Source of the DNA: an uncultured Bacilli bacterium | Lineage (GTDB): Bacteria > Bacillota_I > Bacilli_A > RF39 > UBA660 | Direction: 5' to 3' | Assembly: GCA_934096755.1 (NCBI GenBank) | Contig: CAKOMU010000001.1 | Coordinates: forward strand, 1 to 44,041 | DNA length: 44,041 nucleotides | Shown here: piece by piece, positions 15,576-23,102 of the stretch | Position numbering within the stretch: position 1 is the stretch's first letter | Layout of the letters: every line of letters begins with the position of its first letter | Program-made: the position numbers and the translations under genes | The notes under the pieces: generated by a model | Seen by the model: only the letters and a program-made list of their open reading frames with translations | The model's database searches: none | What the model was told of the DNA's origin: nothing

Positions 15576-17369
15576 GTGGCTAAAGAACATATACGTAATT
15601 TTTCAATTATTGCCCATATTGATCATGGGAAAAGTACGTTAGCAGATAGAATTTTGGAAATTACAGGAGCTTTATCAAAAAGAGAGATGAAAGATCAAAT
15701 TCTAGATAATATGGATCTAGAAAGAGAAAGAGGTATAACAATTAAGTTAAATGCAGTGAGGCTTAAATACCATTATAACGGTGAAGACTATAAAATTAAT
15801 TTAATTGATACTCCAGGTCATGTCGACTTTTCTTATGAGGTTTCACGAAGTTTGGCGGCTTGTGAAGGAGCTTTATTAATTGTCGATGCTGCTCAAGGAA
15901 TTGAGGCACAAACTTTAGCTAATTTGTACTTGGCGATGGAACAAGACTTAAAAATTATTCCAGTTATTAATAAGATTGACTTACCAAATGCAGATATTCC
16001 ACGAGTAACTAAAGAATTAGTAGATGTCTTAGGTTTTAAAGAAGATGAAATAATTTTATGTAGTGCTAAGACAGGTGAAGGTGTTGAAGATATTATAAAA
16101 GCGGTGATTGAAAGAATTCCAGAACCGGTGATAGATGTTTTTAAGCCTACGAGAGCTTTGATATTTGATTCTTATTTTGATTCTTATCGAGGCGTTATTT
16201 TATTAGTTAAAGTAGTGGATGGTAAAATTAAGCTTGGTGATAAAATTAAAATGATGGCTAGTGGTAGCACTTTTGAAGTAGTTGAGTTGGGAGTTCATAC
16301 CCCAAAAGAATTAAAATATAAAGAATTGCTAAGTGGAGAAGTAGGGTATGTTTGTGCAGCGATTAAAGATATTAGTACCGTAAGTGTGGGAGATACTATA
16401 ACTGTTTTAGGAAATGAAGATGTTATGCCTATAAAAGGGTATAAAGAAATGAAACCAATGGTATTTTCTGGAATTTTTCCAACAGAACCTAATCGTTATG
16501 AAGAGTTAAAAGAAGCCTTAATAAAATTAAAGCTAAATGATGCAGCCTTGCATTTTGAACCAGAAACTAGTGAAGCTTTGGGATTTGGTTTTCGTATTGG
16601 TTTTTTAGGACTTCTTCATATGGATGTCGTAATTACAAGAATTGAAAGAGAATTTGGTATCAATATTATTGCTACTAGTCCTAGTGTTGTTTACAAAGTG
16701 ACTTTAACTGATGGCGATGTGGTAGATGTCGATGCTCCTAATAAAATGCCAGATCGAGCAAAAATATTGAAAATTGAAGAACCATATATATATACTAGTA
16801 TTATTGCTCCATCTACTTACATTGGTGCAATTATGGAACTGTGTCAAAATAAAAGAGGGATATATAAAGCTGTAGATTATATAGATGCTACGAGAATTAA
16901 TGTTCACTATGAAATTCCTTTGGCGGAAATTGTTTATGATTTTTATGACCGTTTGAAAAGTACGACCAAAGGGTATGCTTCTTTTGACTACGAATTAAAC
17001 GGTTATAAAGAAAGTAGTTTAGTAAAGATGGATATTTTATTAAACGGAGAAATAGTTGATGCTTTAAGTGTAATTGTTCATAAAGATTTTGCTTACCAAA
17101 AGGGAAGAAGTATTGTTGGAAAGTTGAGAGAATTAATTCCTAGACAAATGTTTCAAATTCCTATTCAAGCTAGTATTGGCTCTAAAGTTATTGCTAGAGA
17201 AAATATTAGTGCTTTAAAGAAAAATGTGTTGGCTAAATGCTATGGTGGAGATGTTTCACGAAAAAGAAAACTATTGGAAAAACAAAAGGAAGGAAAAAAA
17301 CGAATGAAAATGGTTGGTTCTGTTGAGGTGCCACAAGAAGCATTTTTAGCCGTTTTGGGGGATGAATGA
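15576..17369 (+). CDS. lepA: Elongation factor 4
   Basis: GTG start. [23 protein letters not shown] and NKID form the GTPase motifs, with a conserved LepA C-terminus. Confidence 0.97.
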
Positions 17370-18004
17370 TGAAAGAAAAAATTAAAGAAAACGTATTGAA
17401 TAAAGCAATTAAAGTTGATCAAAATTTATTAAGAGAATGGTATCCAATGCCATCACGAAGAAGTAATTTTATTGCTAATTGTGCACTTACTTTTGGTTTA
17501 CAATTAGAGACTTTAGCTGTTATTTTTGGTAAAACAGAATGGGAAATGCGCAATTATTTGTTAAAAGCTGATTGTGTTTCTTCTTTAAATCGTTTATTTT
17601 ATTCAGGTGTAATTAATCAAGAAGAAGCAATTGCTAATTTTAATCAATTTTATACCAAGTTGACTGATGCTTATAATAATGGGCAAAAGGTTAAGGATAT
17701 TTTGGCAGAAATTTATGATTATAAAGTTTATGAGTTTAAGAAAAATCATAAAGCAGGTCAATCTCTTAGTACAGAAAATATCATGATGTTAATGAAGTAT
17801 CAAGTCAAACATTTGATTTCGACAAAAGAAATGGGGTTGTTATTTAATTTTAATCCTGGGCATTACCGTCGACAAATTAACAAAATAAATTATGAAGTAA
17901 AAAATAGAGAAATTAAAAAATTATTAGCTAATTACTATTCTTTAATTGATAAGAGTGAAAAATCTTTTAAAGAAAATACATTAAAAAGAGTGTACCATGG
18001 CTAA
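17366..18004 (+). CDS. Hypothetical helical protein wedged between lepA and hemW
   Basis: 212 aa with no TM. The start overlaps the lepA stop (ATGA) and the stop overlaps the hemW start (ATGGCTAA). Two HTH-like segments are visible by eye: [19 protein letters not shown] and [20 protein letters not shown]. Confidence 0.6.
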
Positions 18005-19076
18005 GGCCGTTTATGTACATATTCCTTTTTGTCATAATATTTGTTCTTATTGTGATTTTTGTAAGTTTTTATATAATGAAAAGTGGGTATATGCTTATTT
18101 TAAAGCATTAAAAAACGAGATTAATGATCGATATATGGGAGATAAAATTGAAACTATATATATCGGTGGTGGGACGCCTAGTTACCTTAGTTTAAAAGAA
18201 ATTGAAAAATTAATGGGGATGTTAAGTGTCTTGGATACTAGTGAGTTAAAGGAATTTACATTTGAGTGTAACTTAGAGGATATTACAGAAGAATTATTAG
18301 ATTTATTAAAAAAATATCGAGTAAATAGACTTAGTATTGGGATTCAATCATTTAATAAAAAAAATTTGGCTTTTATGGAAAGACAAGCTGATTTTAAAGA
18401 TGCATTATATAAAATGAATATGTGTCGTAAAAAAGGATTTCAAAATATTAATTTGGATTTGATGTATGCCATACCAGGTGAAACATTAAAAGATTTGAAA
18501 AAAGATTTAGAGTTGTTTCGTAAATTAAATCCTACCCATATTAGTGCTTATAGTTTGATATTAGAAGAGCATACCAAAGCTTATGTCAATAAAACTACAT
18601 ACATAGAAGAAGAATTAGATTATGAGATGTATAAATTGATTACTAATATGCTTGATGGTGCTAATCATTATGAAATTAGTAATTATGCAATTGAAGGCTA
18701 TGAATGTTTGCATAATTTAGTGTATTGGAATAATGAAGAGTATTATGGGTTTGGTTTAGGGGCTAGTGGTTATCTAGATGGTATTCGTTATACTAATACT
18801 AAAAATTTAAAAGATTATTTACTAGGTAATTATGTTAGTAGTAGAGAAATTATTAAAGATAAAGAAGCGATGGATTATGAACTTATGCTGGGGTTAAGAA
18901 AGTTTTCCGGCATAAATATTAAAAAATTTTATGAAAAATTTGGTTATAATTTGTTGGAAGTTTATGATTTGAAGAAACTATTAAAAAATAAAGAATTGAT
19001 TAAAAAAAGAGGATATATTTACGTAAATCCTATGTATATGTATGTCATGAATGAGATACTTCTACAAATAATTTAA
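17997..19076 (+). CDS. hemW: Radical SAM heme chaperone HemW (HemN-like)
   Basis: VYVHIPFCHNICSYCDF carries the CxxxCxxC motif. IYIGGGTP is present, and the position after lepA fits. Confidence 0.9.
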   Translation: MAKAVYVHIPFCHNICSYCDFCKFLYNEKWVYAYFKALKNEINDRYMGDKIETIYIGGGTPSYLSLKEIEKLMGMLSVLDTSELKEFTFECNLEDITEELLDLLKKYRVNRLSIGIQSFNKKNLAFMERQADFKDALYKMNMCRKKGFQNINLDLMYAIPGETLKDLKKDLELFRKLNPTHISAYSLILEEHTKAYVNKTTYIEEELDYEMYKLITNMLDGANHYEISNYAIEGYECLHNLVYWNNEEYYGFGLGASGYLDGIRYTNTKNLKDYLLGNYVSSREIIKDKEAMDYELMLGLRKFSGINIKKFYEKFGYNLLEVYDLKKLLKNKELIKKRGYIYVNPMYMYVMNEILLQII

Positions 19077-19111: not shown

Positions 19112-19519
19112 GTGCTTTTAAATTTGGAAGTTTTAAATGGTGTTATGACGATTGATTTTGATCCATTAATTGATACTTACACTGTTGATGTTGCTAGTGA
19201 TGTCGATAGTTTGGTTCTTAATTATGAATTGTCTACTGATAGTAATCTTAAAATAATCAATAATGAAGATTTAGTAGAGGGAGAAAATATTATTTATTTA
19301 GAAGTAAGTAGTCAAAAAGATATGAATACCTATACTTTATTAGTTAATAAAGAAAGTACACAAAGTGTATTTAATTATGAAAATATGGCTGATAGTTTAG
19401 ATGTTTATCATGAAAAACAACCCAATAGTGTATTAATTGGGGGTGGCACTTTTTTAATCATTATTCTTTGCTTTATAATTATTTTTCGACCAAGACTCAA
19501 GCATAAAAAAGTAAAATAA
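19112..19519 (+). CDS. Small protein with a cadherin-like beta-sandwich-type domain and a C-terminal TM anchor
   Basis: GTG start with SD AAGGGAG 8 nt upstream. L.L.V..G....F.P....Y.V.V.......L is the pattern typical of cadherin-like beta-sandwich domains. The C-terminus is VLIGGGTFLIIILCFIIIF followed by RPRLKHKK. Confidence 0.5.
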   Translation: MLLNLEVLNGVMTIDFDPLIDTYTVDVASDVDSLVLNYELSTDSNLKIINNEDLVEGENIIYLEVSSQKDMNTYTLLVNKESTQSVFNYENMADSLDVYHEKQPNSVLIGGGTFLIIILCFIIIFRPRLKHKKVK

Positions 19520-19597: not shown

Positions 19598-21637
19598 ATG
19601 AAGATAGTTTTACAAAGAGAAGAAAAAGATTGTGGAATATGTTGTCTTAGTATGATTATTCAGTATTATAAAGGTTTTGTACCATTAGAAGTGTTGCGAA
19701 TGGATGCTAAAACTGATAAAAATGGAACATCAGCTTTAAATATGGTTTTGACAGCGCAAAAATATGGTTTTGATGCCATGGGATTAAAATTAGATAATCT
19801 AAGTGATATACCCCAATTGCCTTCGATTGCTCATTTACAATTAAAAAATGGGTATACACATTATGTGTTAATTTTAAAAGTAACTAAAAATAAAGTAACT
19901 ATTATTGATCCTGCAAAAGGAAAGGAGGTTTTAAGTCTTGCAAAATTTAAGCAGGATTGGACTGGAGTAGTTATTGTTTTTTATCCTAAACGGAAAATTG
20001 TTGTGTTAAAAAATAAGACTACTTTATTCAAAATATTAAAAAATATTTATAAACAAGAAAAGAAAATTATAAATATCATTATGATTGTCAATTTGCTTTT
20101 TATTATTCTATCTATCATAGGTGAATATTATCTACAAACTATGATGGGAGTTATTAATGGTTTTTATGATTATCGGTATATCAAATGGTTGTTTTTGTTA
20201 TTCTTTTTCTTTTTGATAAGTAAAATTTGGATGGGAAATTTTCGCCTTTATTTAGAAAATCATGTTCATAAAAGTGTTTCTGGTGTTTTATATCGTGATT
20301 TTTTAAGTCATCTATTTAAACTTCCTTTAGAACAAATTACTTCGCGAAAATCTGGTGATATTGTTGCTAGAGTAGAGGATTTAAACAGTATTAGCCAGAT
20401 TCTCGTGGAATTTGTCGGTGGAATTGTTTTAGATTTAACATTGTTAGCTTTGGTCTTAATAATCCTTATAAATATCAATCTTTATTTATTTATGAGTGTA
20501 TTTATCTTGTCTTTAATTTATCTATTTATTTGTTTTTTTACCTATAAGGTGATTTATAAAAAAGCATATAACAATATTTGTTTAGCTAATGATAGTTTAA
20601 ATAGTTTATATGAGAGCGTTAAAATGATATCTAGTATAAAAAATATGAATTGTGAAGATGTTGTTTTAAAGAAGATGGAAAAGAAAGTATGTAATTTTTT
20701 ATTTGATGAGTTTAAGTTTAAAAATTTATTAAATAAGATAGGTATTTTGAAAAATATAATCGATGAATTATATTTTTTTATGACTACTTCTTTGGGGATT
20801 TGGTTGGTTTTTAAACAAAAAATAGATATTTGGCATTTGATAACATTTAATATGATTTTAAATTTATATGTAAGTTTTATCAAAAAAATAGGTGATGGTT
20901 TACCAAAGTTAAGTATGCTTAGAGCTAGCTTAACTAAGGTTAATGAGTTTTTAAATATAATACCTGAAAAAAGTGGAAGATTAGAAGTATTGAATAATTA
21001 TAGTCTTAAAGGTGTTAATCTCAGTTATCAATATAATTCGCTTAAACAAATTTTTACTAATTTAAATTTTGAAATTAAAGAAGGAGAGTTTGTGTTATTA
21101 AAGGGGCCAAGTGGATGTGGAAAATCCACGGTTTGTCATATGTTAAATAAATGTCTTAGTGATTTTCAAGGTTTGCTGATGATTGGTGATGTTAATATTA
21201 AAGATTTAAGTGTGCAATCCGTACGTAATAATATTTTGTATGTAGGACAAAATGAAGCTTTGGAAACAGATTCGATTTATAATAATATTATCTTTAATCG
21301 AGAAGTTTCAAATGAACTATTTAGAAATGTGTGTGAGATTTGTCATTTAGATCAAATAGTAGAAAATAAAGTTTTACGATATGAAAGTATTATTAGCGAT
21401 GAAGAAGGGACTATTTCTGGTGGTGAAAGACAAAGAATTATATTAGCTCGAGCTTTACTCAATCAATTTAAGATACTTATTTTAGATGAAGCTTTAAGTG
21501 AGGTTGATATGGGGATGGAAATGGATATAATTACAAAATTAAGAAATAGTTTTTGGCAAAAAACAATTATTTTTATTAGTCATAAAAAATATAAAAAAAT
21601 ATTTGATCAAGAAATTGATTTAGGAAAATGTCAATGA
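19598..21637 (+). CDS. Peptidase C39 domain-containing ABC transporter (double-glycine-leader peptide processing and export; ComA/LagD/LcnC type)
   Basis: The N-terminal C39 domain has QREEKDCGICCLSMI (catalytic Cys) and HYVLIL (His). A multi-TM domain follows, then Walker A GPSGCGKST, signature ISGGERQR and Walker B ILILDEA. SD GAAGGAGG lies upstream. Confidence 0.9.
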   Translation: MKIVLQREEKDCGICCLSMIIQYYKGFVPLEVLRMDAKTDKNGTSALNMVLTAQKYGFDAMGLKLDNLSDIPQLPSIAHLQLKNGYTHYVLILKVTKNKVTIIDPAKGKEVLSLAKFKQDWTGVVIVFYPKRKIVVLKNKTTLFKILKNIYKQEKKIINIIMIVNLLFIILSIIGEYYLQTMMGVINGFYDYRYIKWLFLLFFFFLISKIWMGNFRLYLENHVHKSVSGVLYRDFLSHLFKLPLEQITSRKSGDIVARVEDLNSISQILVEFVGGIVLDLTLLALVLIILININLYLFMSVFILSLIYLFICFFTYKVIYKKAYNNICLANDSLNSLYESVKMISSIKNMNCEDVVLKKMEKKVCNFLFDEFKFKNLLNKIGILKNIIDELYFFMTTSLGIWLVFKQKIDIWHLITFNMILNLYVSFIKKIGDGLPKLSMLRASLTKVNEFLNIIPEKSGRLEVLNNYSLKGVNLSYQYNSLKQIFTNLNFEIKEGEFVLLKGPSGCGKSTVCHMLNKCLSDFQGLLMIGDVNIKDLSVQSVRNNILYVGQNEALETDSIYNNIIFNREVSNELFRNVCEICHLDQIVENKVLRYESIISDEEGTISGGERQRIILARALLNQFKILILDEALSEVDMGMEMDIITKLRNSFWQKTIIFISHKKYKKIFDQEIDLGKCQ

Positions 21638-22035
21638 ATTATAGTTATTTAATTAATATACCAGTCAAAATAAAATTTATTTTAGTAGTGTTTATCATAC
21701 AAATAATTTTTATTTTGATACTCATTTTATTTTTTCCTGTTTATCGAGTCTATTCGACTTATTTTTATGTCGATCAAGATTTGATATACATTAAATTACC
21801 TATTAATAACCCTGATATTATTGAGAAAATGGAGTATGGAATAATAAATGAGAAAAAGTATAATTTGATAGTAAAAAATATTAGCCCAGTGATGGTTAAT
21901 AAAGAAACAATGGAAAATTATCAGTTGGTAGCGCTAGAAAGTCCTAAGGAATTTTTTAATGATGAAATTATTAAAATAGATATTTATTATGATAGACAAA
22001 AAGTGTGGAGAAAAATAAAACAATGGTTATTTTAG
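21628..22035 (+). CDS. Small single-TM protein coupled to the ABC exporter (candidate mini accessory or immunity protein)
   Basis: The start overlaps the transporter stop (either ATG 21628 or ATG 21634 in ATGA). N-terminal TM FILVVFIIQIIFILILILFF is followed by a beta-rich region of about 95 aa. It ends 9 nt before peptide gene A. Confidence 0.6.
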   Translation: MSMNYSYLINIPVKIKFILVVFIIQIIFILILILFFPVYRVYSTYFYVDQDLIYIKLPINNPDIIEKMEYGIINEKKYNLIVKNISPVMVNKETMENYQLVALESPKEFFNDEIIKIDIYYDRQKVWRKIKQWLF

Positions 22036-22044
22036 GAGGTAGAT

Positions 22045-22176
22045 GTGAAATTATCAGTGAGTGAATTAGAAAATATTAATGGTGGAAATGTCACGACTTG
22101 GTACATATTAGCTGGAGTTGGGGTATTTTTAGCAGGACTTTTTGTAGGTTTTTTTAATGGTAAATCTTGTAAATAG
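22045..22176 (+). CDS. Double-glycine-leader bacteriocin prepeptide A (43 aa; not in the ORF track)
   Basis: AGGAGG lies 5 nt upstream of GTG 22045. The translation is (M)KLSVSELENINGG / NVTTWYILAGVGVFLAGLFVGFFNGKSCK. The leader fits LSxxELxxIxGG, and the mature part is hydrophobic with G31xxxG35xxxG39. Confidence 0.8.
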   Translation: MKLSVSELENINGGNVTTWYILAGVGVFLAGLFVGFFNGKSCK

Positions 22177-22185
22177 GAGTATTTT

Positions 22186-22341
22186 ATGAAACTTAGTGGA
22201 GAAAAATTAAGCCAAATAGTAGGTGGAGGAGTGACCGTATCCTTGCTTAATTCGTTATCAAGAATTGCAAGTACAATATATGATATTGGCTATGCGTTGG
22301 GATCAACTGTGCGAAAGCTATTTGGATCAAATACTTGTTAA
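22186..22341 (+). CDS. Double-glycine-leader bacteriocin prepeptide B (51 aa; not in the ORF track)
   Basis: SD TAGGAG lies 7 nt upstream of ATG 22186. The translation is MKLSGEKLSQIVGG / GVTVSLLNSLSRIASTIYDIGYALGSTVRKLFGSNTC. The mature part is amphipathic and cationic with GYALG (GxxxG). A terminator follows immediately. Confidence 0.8.
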   Translation: MKLSGEKLSQIVGGGVTVSLLNSLSRIASTIYDIGYALGSTVRKLFGSNTC

Positions 22342-22363
22342 AAAGGTTTAAATAACCTTTTTT
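22342..22363 (+). terminator. Rho-independent terminator closing the bacteriocin operon
   Basis: AAAGGTT / AACCTTT stem with loop TAAAT and a T-run. Confidence 0.6.
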
Positions 22364-22407
22364 ATTACAGAAATTAGGATAAGTTAGCGATTTTTGGCAA
22401 AAAAACG

Positions 22408-22436
22408 TTGTAAAGCTGGACCTCTTTTGTTATAAT
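22408..22436 (+). promoter_or_regulatory. Promoter of rpsU-yqeY
   Basis: TTGTAA, a 17-nt spacer, then TGtTATAAT (extended -10). Confidence 0.65.
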
Positions 22437-22466
22437 ATTTTATGAAAAACGAAGGGAGGGCTGGAA

Positions 22467-22652
22467 ATGACAAAAGTAGTTGTACAAAATGGGAATGTTG
22501 ATTTAGCATTAAAAAAGTTTAAAGCAAAAGTTGCAAGAAGTGGAGTCCCTTCTGAAATCAAAAAAAGAAAACACTATGAAAAACCTGGTGTTAGAAGAAG
22601 AAACGAAATTAAAGAAGGAATTAAAAATTCTCATAAAAGAAATAGAGGATAG
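22467..22652 (+). CDS. rpsU: 30S ribosomal protein S21
   Basis: LKKFKAKVARSGV...KRKHYEKPGVRRR matches S21. SD GAAGGGAGG lies upstream. Confidence 0.95.
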   Translation: MTKVVVQNGNVDLALKKFKAKVARSGVPSEIKKRKHYEKPGVRRRNEIKEGIKNSHKRNRG

Positions 22653-22655
22653 ATA

Positions 22656-23102
22656 ATGTACGAAAAGATTAATGAAGATTTGAAATCAGCGATGAAAGAG
22701 AAAGATACTTTTAAATTATCTGTGTTGAGAATGTTAAAAAGTGCATTGCAGTTAGAAAAAATTGCCAAGAAACATGAACTAGATGATAATGAAGTAGCTG
22801 GTGTTTTAAAAAAACAAGTTAAATTGAGAAAAGATTCTTTAGAAGAATATGAGAAGTATAATAAGGTAGAATTGATAGATTCTTTAAAAAAAGAAATAGA
22901 AATTCTGGCGATGTATTTACCACAAGAGTTAAGTGATGCCGAATTAGAAAAAATTGTTGATGATACTTTTATGGAAGTTAATCCGGAAAGTATGAAAGAT
23001 ATTGGCAAAGTTATGAAAGTTGTAAATGAAAAATTAGTTGGTAAAAATGCTGATATGTCAAAGATTAGTAAATTAGTTAAAGAAAAATTAAGTACGAAGT
23101 AA
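22656..23102 (+). CDS. yqeY: GatB/YqeY domain-containing protein
   Basis: INEDLKSAMKEKDTFKLSVLRMLKSAL matches the family. The position after rpsU is as in B. subtilis. Confidence 0.88.
   Translation: MYEKINEDLKSAMKEKDTFKLSVLRMLKSALQLEKIAKKHELDDNEVAGVLKKQVKLRKDSLEEYEKYNKVELIDSLKKEIEILAMYLPQELSDAELEKIVDDTFMEVNPESMKDIGKVMKVVNEKLVGKNADMSKISKLVKEKLSTK

Follow-up and report, generated by a model that had tools for sequence, protein, structure and literature searches.

What do two small adjacent genes behind a C39-ABC exporter make in an uncultured bacterium: the two halves of an antimicrobial complex, two unrelated peptides, a signal, or an exported component of the producer's own envelope? The genes, called pepA and pepB here, lie near the middle of a 44,041-nucleotide contig of an uncultured Bacilli bacterium (CAKOMU010000001.1), and that whole stretch of DNA is referred to below as the window. 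The original prediction, made from the letters of the window and a list of open reading frames, was of a novel pair of class IIb-like bacteriocin peptides. The reading defended here is that pepA and pepB encode a class IIb-like two-peptide bacteriocin, possibly disulfide-linked, whose antimicrobial activity we infer; it is moderately probable. The features on which the argument depends are these:

19598-21637, plus strand: PCAT exporter, 679 aa, with an N-terminal C39 peptidase, a six-helix ABC membrane domain and a nucleotide-binding domain.
21628-22035, plus strand: ACC, 135 aa, with an N-terminal TM helix, a beta-rich domain of about 90 aa and a C-terminal helix.
22034-22039, plus strand: Shine-Dalgarno sequence of pepA, AGGAGG, with a 5-nt spacer to the GTG, read from the sequence.
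22045-22176, plus strand: pepA prepeptide, 43 aa, GTG start at 22045, from the sequence and the open reading frames.
22045-22086, plus strand: pepA leader, (M)KLSVSELENINGG, 14 residues, double-glycine type.
22087-22173, plus strand: predicted mature part of pepA, NVTTWYILAGVGVFLAGLFVGFFNGKSCK, 29 aa, a TM-like hydrophobic helix with GxxxG (G31, G35) and a C-terminal Cys42.
22175-22179, plus strand: Shine-Dalgarno sequence of pepB, AGGAG, with a 6-nt spacer to the ATG, read from the sequence.
22186-22341, plus strand: pepB prepeptide, 51 aa, ATG start at 22186, from the sequence and the open reading frames.
22186-22227, plus strand: pepB leader, MKLSGEKLSQIVGG, 14 residues, double-glycine type.
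22228-22338, plus strand: predicted mature part of pepB, GVTVSLLNSLSRIASTIYDIGYALGSTVRKLFGSNTC, 37 aa, a cationic amphipathic helix with GxxxG (G35, G39) and a terminal Cys51.
22340-22368, plus strand: weak terminator-like hairpin of 9 bp, -7.3 kcal/mol, followed by a U-rich run (fold z = -1.99).
22408-22436: promoter-like site before rpsU, TTGTAA-17-TATAAT with TG; rpsU itself is at 22467.

The operon runs in the order C39-ABC exporter, ACC, pepA, pepB and weak terminator, and it is tightly packed: the ABC and ACC genes have 10 nt in common, the ACC stop codon runs into the Shine-Dalgarno sequence of pepA, and only 9 nt separate pepA from pepB. The hairpin was missed by a consensus terminator scan, which requires at least three G-C pairs; Rfam and tRNA scans of the window gave no match. 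The two small reading frames, each with its own Shine-Dalgarno sequence, were borne out in coordinates and translation by the sequence and the list of reading frames. They had been called unannotated, which is accurate for the reading-frame track used at the time, but public assemblies (NCBI, ENA and Logan) do predict both as genes, without names. They had also been placed directly after the exporter, which is incorrect: the 135-aa ACC frame (21628-22035) separates the exporter from pepA. A leader pattern of hydrophobic residues at -12, -7 and -4 followed by G[GAS], applied to six-frame start sites of the window with products of at most 90 aa, matched five sites, namely pepA, pepB, two internal starts of a longer gene and one antisense reading frame. 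That pepA and pepB are real genes and not chance reading frames follows from the conservation of the pair across related loci, to which we return below.

Both leaders carry hydrophobic residues at -4, -7 and -12 from the G13-G14 pair, a pattern from which cleavage after Gly14 is predicted in both peptides. The 14-aa leaders of C39-type consensus claimed originally are thus present with all of their positions (-12, -7, -4, -2 and -1), and the claimed mature lengths of 29 and 37 aa agree with the predicted cut. The exporter that would make this cut was also identified correctly. It matches Peptidase_C39 (5.6e-37), ABC_membrane (6e-20) and ABC_tran (2.8e-24) in Pfam, and in NCBIfam it scores 334 bits against TIGR01193 and 303 bits against NF045998 (the Mbov_0121 family), in both cases under the cut-off. 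Its alignment with ComA (8hf7, 3e-74) and PCAT1 (4ry2, 1e-67) covers the full length, with the Cys of the DCG motif, the His and the Asp all in register. The 679-aa protein combines the features by which a PCAT is recognised, an N-terminal C39 domain with a Cys/His/Asp triad, a type I exporter membrane domain and a nucleotide-binding domain. Because Gln6, Cys12, His88 and Asp104 are kept, together with Walker A at 503, the signature motif at 607 and Walker B at 626, it is predicted to be an active-type PCAT rather than a protein with a Cys-less C39-like domain. It resembles ComA and PCAT1 along its whole length and in its catalytic and ATPase motifs, but differs from them in lying below both NCBIfam cut-offs and in the families of its cargo. 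Class IIb systems pair consensus leaders with such an exporter, and in the window both leaders follow the consensus and the C39 catalytic set is intact, with cleavage predicted. The C39 domain would then recognise both prepeptides through their 14-residue leaders, and the exporter would cleave after Gly14 and translocate both products, as its intact catalytic residues and its homology to ComA and PCAT1 suggest.

The two predicted products are chemically complementary, one hydrophobic and the other amphipathic and cationic, just as had been proposed. Mature A (3109.6 Da predicted, GRAVY 0.99, net charge +2) is essentially a bare membrane-spanning helix with little amphipathicity. Mature B (3878.4 Da predicted, net charge +2) is amphipathic, with a muH of 0.55-0.68. 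An AF2 model of pepB built with the family alignment has a leader helix at residues 6-12, one long helix at 15-46 (pLDDT 88-90 over residues 21-40) and a disordered Cys tail, and B is accordingly modelled as one 32-residue helix. The GxxxG motifs noted at the outset in both mature parts turn out to be the conserved ones: the 23 aligned pepA sequences show no variation at G14, G31 and G35 and conservation of 90% or more at G13, F28 and C42, while the 115 aligned pepB sequences never vary at G14 and C51 and reach 90% conservation or more at G13, G35 and G39. A GxxxG in each peptide is a class IIb trait, and here it is carried by G31/G35 in the 23 pepA sequences and by G35/G39 in the 115 pepB sequences.

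How widespread are these peptides? A word-indexed search returned few relatives; an exhaustive profile search started from four pepB sequences returned, at E<=1e-3, the representatives of 267 clusters built at 50% identity. The word "novel" in the original prediction therefore holds in one sense, since no curated family covers the mature parts, and fails in another: with a family of 267 clusters, the pair is not a one-off. The pepA homologues include those designated P0005-P0013. The locus set comprised 24 related loci with context, and a 10-sequence pepB subset gave 18 metagenome loci. Searching genome contigs with the ABC protein found only ABC proteins of at most 27% identity, and none of the 80 loci held pepA- or pepB-like reading frames by HMM. 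All related loci are very low in GC (22-34%). To judge from sequence, pepA and pepB are a large uncurated family of paired peptides from very low-GC uncultured gut Bacillota.

The pairing itself is regular, with a pepA-type gene directly upstream of pepB in 23 of the 24 related loci. The exception (L120) has an orphan pepB with a hairpin in front of it and no pepA upstream. Many bacteriocin loci encode several unrelated double-glycine peptides per exporter, and together with the orphan this is what can be said for A and B being two independent one-peptide (class IId-type) bacteriocins that merely use a common exporter and have no synergy. The fixed A-then-B order in all of the other loci speaks for a functional pair instead, and A, as an almost bare TM helix, would be an odd one-peptide bacteriocin. 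We regard independence of the two peptides as distinctly unlikely.

Could the pair belong to a described class IIb family? Whole pepA comes closest, with 20.4 bits against TIGR03949, the lactobin A/cerein 7B class IIb family, whose cut-off is 21.5; pepB has no match in Pfam or NCBIfam. Among the 23 whole prepeptides of the pepA family, 17 match TIGR03949 at E<=0.01 and 12 match the lactococcin G-beta model, the TIGR03949 match spanning the leader and the Gly-rich hydrophobic stretch. Once the leader is stripped, pepA-family peptides have no TIGR03949 match at E<=1, and lactococcin G-type models are likewise matched by family members only with the leader attached. The window peptides themselves match neither NF038034 and NF038035 (lactococcin G/enterocin 1071) nor Pfam LcnG-beta. 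The likeness to curated class IIb families thus comes from the leader, because it vanishes with it; pepA differs from TIGR03949 both in falling short of its cut-off and in losing the match without its leader, and the mature sequences match no curated class IIb model. Members of TIGR03949 differ in another respect as well: lactobin A and cerein 7B have two Cys that form an intramolecular bridge, as against the single terminal Cys of each peptide here. The family profiles of pepA and of pepB each give a weak match to the leader peptide of CtA in its complex with PCAT1, and apart from that leader no solved structure was matched by the mature parts in the profile searches. The earlier remark that neither mature sequence was recognisable has therefore stood up against both curated families and solved structures. 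A literature search on the family motifs, on disulfide-linked two-peptide bacteriocins and on the related Mycoplasma families found nothing relevant.

Leaders of this kind, and a ComA-like exporter, would equally suit quorum-sensing pheromones of the ComC/BlpC/PlnA type, and a few pepB-family members, which otherwise have scattered leader-type matches only, do weakly match pheromone or induction-factor models through their leaders. That one or both peptides are such pheromones is nevertheless very improbable. Double-glycine pheromones are 17-27 aa long, and the predicted mature parts differ from them both in length (29 and 37 aa) and in having a TM-like helix and GxxxG motifs. A linked histidine kinase or response regulator had been named at the start as the sign that would point to a pheromone. 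Neither HisKA, HATPase_c nor Response_reg occurs in the Pfam listings of the 20-kb neighbourhood in the window or of four related neighbourhoods, and for eight further loci, with 72 neighbour proteins, the families represented at least twice include no histidine kinase or response regulator. Within these neighbourhoods, the bacteriocin reading comes through that check.

Three things went unremarked in the original prediction: the ACC gene, the conserved C-terminal Cys of both peptides and the position of the operon upstream of rpsU.

The cysteines are the most distinctive trait of the family. Each mature peptide has one conserved Cys near its C-terminus, downstream of the GxxxG; in pepA it usually lies within N/R-P-x-K-C. 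Among 153 pepB relatives, 148 have a Cys within roughly the last 0-6 residues and 125 have exactly one Cys. Two pepB peptides end without Cys, P0046 (L117) and P0060 (L116), and in both loci the partner pepA stops after the GxxxG region, without the N-P-x-K-C tail; the tail-less pepA of this clade has another Cys, inside the GxxxG. Cys is missing from the orphan pepB of L120 too. The joint loss in L116 and L117, which counts as a single evolutionary event, tentatively suggests that the A and B tails work together. It also bears on the independence of the two peptides considered above, which would leave both the GxxxG and C-terminal Cys common to A and B, and the disappearance of both tails together in one clade, as coincidences. 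The simplest idea for the paired tails is an interchain disulfide, which may join A to B. To our knowledge, no two-peptide bacteriocin is a covalent disulfide heterodimer, and the literature search turned up no paper on a disulfide-linked one. The class IIb review consulted (PMC2850506) does not contain the word "cysteine", and its sole "disulfide" stands in a reference on sakacin P; one conserved C-terminal Cys per peptide is a point on which pepA and pepB differ from class IIb.

Two further ideas about the cysteines were discarded. That the number of Cys in A strictly follows that in B is not supported: CxC-tailed pepB peptides are paired with single-Cys pepA, and one CGC pepA is paired with a single-Cys pepB. 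Modification of the Cys by the product of the radical-SAM gene hemW (17997-19076) was set aside on two grounds: a lepA-hemW order is commonplace among housekeeping genes, and in most related loci hemW lies away from the cassette.

If the products are bacteriocins, what protects the producer? Class IIb structural operons are described as always including an immunity gene (PMC2850506). Inspection of the operon by Pfam, NCBIfam and the list of reading frames found no CPBP/Abi-type protein and no small multi-TM protein, and the 125 nt between pepB and rpsU hold no further reading frame. The lack of a recognisable immunity gene is thus one difference between the window and class IIb, and the accessory protein is a second: there is no HlyD-size protein in the window, and in place of the class IIb accessory protein of roughly 460 aa stands ACC, with 135 aa and a single TM helix. 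The class IIb-like assignment therefore needs a qualification: the paired leader peptides, the exporter and the GxxxG motifs support it, but neither an immunity gene nor an accessory protein of HlyD size is found in the window. The system is outside every curated class IIb family, and neither of these two canonical components was recognised in the window.

ACC itself may be a minimal accessory protein or an immunity factor, and for the latter role it is the only candidate in the window. Most related loci have a homologue at this position, but it is absent or truncated in L100, L103, L115 and L121, and in some related loci the cassette consists of the ABC, A and B genes alone. No convincing Pfam or NCBIfam family, and no HlyD Pfam match, was found for ACC. 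It matches NF045999 (the MAG1140 family) weakly (E 0.017), residues 14-130 aligning with 8-124 of 126, and two of ten ACC homologues match the same model. A fold search with a single-sequence AF2 model (pLDDT 69) gave no significant match; with a model of that quality, the weak matches (E 0.24-1.7) were to beta-barrel regions of the membrane-fusion proteins Spr0693, MacA, AcrA, MexA and BesA. Together with the 303 bits of the exporter, the end-to-end alignment of ACC recalls the Mbov_0121/MAG1140 pair of Mycoplasma (NF045998, NF045999), and both sides of the comparison come from very low-GC, Bacillota-related lineages; the scores are, however, far under the cut-offs of the two models (500 and 35 bits). 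The literature search found no function for the Mycoplasma pair.

In five other lineages, though not in the window, a third small gene, pepC, begins at the stop codon of pepB. Its product is leaderless, with a basic N-terminus and a TM helix, and its C-terminal residues (about 22) align to the GxxxG core of pepB at 11.6-14.1 bits, or 6.6 bits in one case; the score of pepC against the pepB core was reached by none of 400 composition shuffles. Its position and size are as expected for immunity, which makes pepC a plausible candidate for a decoy-type immunity gene.

The genomic setting speaks for a different function. Of the 22 loci whose downstream sequence is informative, 14 have the cassette immediately before rpsU-yqeY, and it keeps this position even where the S21 protein is only 36-55% identical to that of the window, the whole span being 36%-100%. 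The neighbours of the cassette are housekeeping and sporulation genes, and the pepA and pepB cores are under clear purifying selection. The cassette region is no compositional island, and homologues were found neither on plasmids (tblastn) nor on viral contigs. With its rpsU synteny and without plasmid or phage homologues, the cassette resembles a core locus under stable inheritance more than a typical mobile and patchy bacteriocin island, and a chromosomal position syntenic with rpsU across deep lineages is a further difference from class IIb. Clustering at 90% identity puts the S21 of the window together with a protein of 'Candidatus Onthocola stercoravium', whose genus belongs to Bacilli incertae sedis, which gives a rough placement of the organism. 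An origin as a mobile element was considered and dropped, the plasmid and viral searches being empty.

Such stability, the purifying selection, the neighbours and the inconsistent presence of an immunity gene across loci would all suit an exported membrane heterodimer with a non-antagonistic role in the producer itself, whether in the envelope, in development or sporulation, or in self-signalling, with the PCAT serving for export only. We consider this unlikely, though less so than two independent bacteriocins or a pheromone. Staying in place is not the same as evolving slowly: in a relative whose LepA is 86% and whose HemW is 73% identical, identity falls to 48% for ABC, 38% for ACC, 45% for pepA and 51% for pepB, so the cassette stays where it is and diverges faster than housekeeping genes, a rate that counts against a non-antagonistic role in the producer. 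The gerK genes nearby diverge at a similar rate. Within the neighbourhoods covered, the cassette is linked to neither a receptor nor a regulator gene; the architecture and the peptide chemistry are those of class IIb bacteriocins; and pepC, in the five lineages that have it, is most easily read as immunity.

The class IIb-like reading thus keeps its place as the preferred one. With class IIb (lactococcin G, plantaricin EF/JK and enterocin 1071; PMC2850506) the window shares adjacent, different prepeptide genes in one operon with double-glycine leaders, and with lactococcin G in particular a dedicated C39-ABC exporter in the peptide operon (PMC2850506); the leaders, at 14 residues, differ from the 15-30 of class IIb (PMC2850506). 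The two adjacent prepeptide genes typical of the class are present as pepA and pepB, each with its own Shine-Dalgarno sequence and with one terminator after pepB. The peptides are also alike in being cationic, 29-37 aa long and predicted as helices, with GxxxG in both. By analogy with lactococcin G and the plantaricins, peptides A and B, once exported, would pair helix to helix through their GxxxG motifs in the target membrane, and the pair would permeabilise that membrane or engage a receptor within it. An interchain disulfide between the C-terminal Cys of A and that of B would, on this hypothesis, probably lock the pair, and ACC would serve the exporter as a minimal accessory partner or else be the immunity factor of the producer. 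A bolder version holds that the two peptides form an ancient, vertically inherited system whose active species is a covalent A-S-S-B heterodimer, with decoy self-protection in some lineages by pepC, taken as a leaderless paralogue of B anchored in the membrane, and with the rpsU position as the mark of a core trait of the clade instead of a mobile weapon; taken as a whole, that version is rather unlikely.

If the preferred reading is right, curated resources have missed a large family of two-peptide membrane-active toxins, with at least 267 clusters at 50% identity, whose source is uncultured gut Bacillota and whose mature peptides have no Pfam or NCBIfam model. Peptides A and B are small (3.1 and 3.9 kDa) and their synthesis is feasible, so the predictions are cheap to check. 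The family would add to class IIb biology a conserved Cys pair and maybe a covalent two-peptide complex, a minimal exporter partner of about 135 aa, and possibly a decoy-type immunity. Its stable adjacency to rpsU across deep lineages also bears on a broader question: are peptide systems of this kind always fast-turnover accessory weapons?

The cassette of C39-ABC exporter, candidate accessory or immunity ORF and the two double-glycine-leader prepeptide genes, pepA and pepB, lies directly upstream of the S21 ribosomal protein gene and its neighbor (rpsU-yqeY) in 14 of the 22 informative loci, and this placement is kept even where the S21 protein is only 36-55% identical to that of the window. 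Positional conservation this deep is unusual for a bacteriocin locus.

Cassette directly upstream of rpsU-yqeY
Window, 22342-23102
Related loci L005, L007, L092, L095, L100, L104, L107, L109, L110, L111, L116, L117 and L122

In five other lineages, a third small gene encoding 45-59 aa, here called pepC, begins at the pepB stop or extends across it; the window has no pepC.

pepC genes
L100, 7144-7293
L092, 10311-10475; also L105 and L106, from 7147
L099, from 361
L108, from 3006
L109, from 428

The pepC product has a basic N-terminus and a transmembrane helix, without a double-glycine leader, and its C-terminal ~22 residues match the GxxxG core of pepB at 6.6-14.1 bits, a score reached by none of 400 shuffles. 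In L100, the terminator hairpin is 3' of the pepC ORF rather than of pepB. The pepC product may act as a decoy or an immunity protein.

The two prepeptides have been shortened jointly in one clade, made up of L116 and L117. Its pepB ends in ...FG, without the Cys, and its pepA, whose last residues are GVFCGFFE(K), is missing the N-P-x-K-C tail and has a Cys within the GxxxG motif.

Jointly shortened pepA/pepB pairs
L117, 5375-5658
L116, 541-820

Several ORFs lie upstream of the cassette. Directly before the window's exporter is a 135-aa protein (19112-19519) with a weak Cadherin-like beta-sandwich match (E 2e-4), a C-terminal transmembrane helix and a basic tail; the equivalent slot in L117 holds a CHAP and Cadherin-like protein, and the window protein is not conserved in loci farther removed. 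In a single lineage (L122, 1212-1349), the ORF shortly before the exporter of the cassette is a Cys/Asn-rich one of 45 aa, MNCPNNNETITCPNTSCNNGNGFLIIIVLYILLAIIIGSRRDSLY, with a C-terminal transmembrane segment. Farther upstream in the window, a 212-aa ORF of unassigned function (17366-18004) lies between lepA and hemW, overlapping both. The same slot in the related locus L089 encodes a 343-aa protein with faint SpoIIID and sigma-70 region 4 matches, because of which the protein in this slot may be a DNA-binding regulator.

GC content is very low across the window (1-44041; 23-32%), most of its genes are on the + strand, and GC skew is strongly positive (mostly 0.3-0.44) over almost the entire length of that strand. 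Neither tRNA genes nor Rfam families at gathering threshold were found in these 44 kb.

One protein of the representative library, P0124 (101 aa), consists of pepA-like and pepB-like prepeptides called as a single product, with the junction '...CTSKKW-SIMSEQ...'. The apparent cause of the fusion is gene calling under genetic code 4, with Trp assigned to a TGA stop codon; in that case, the gene caller may have handled some carriers as Mollicutes-like.
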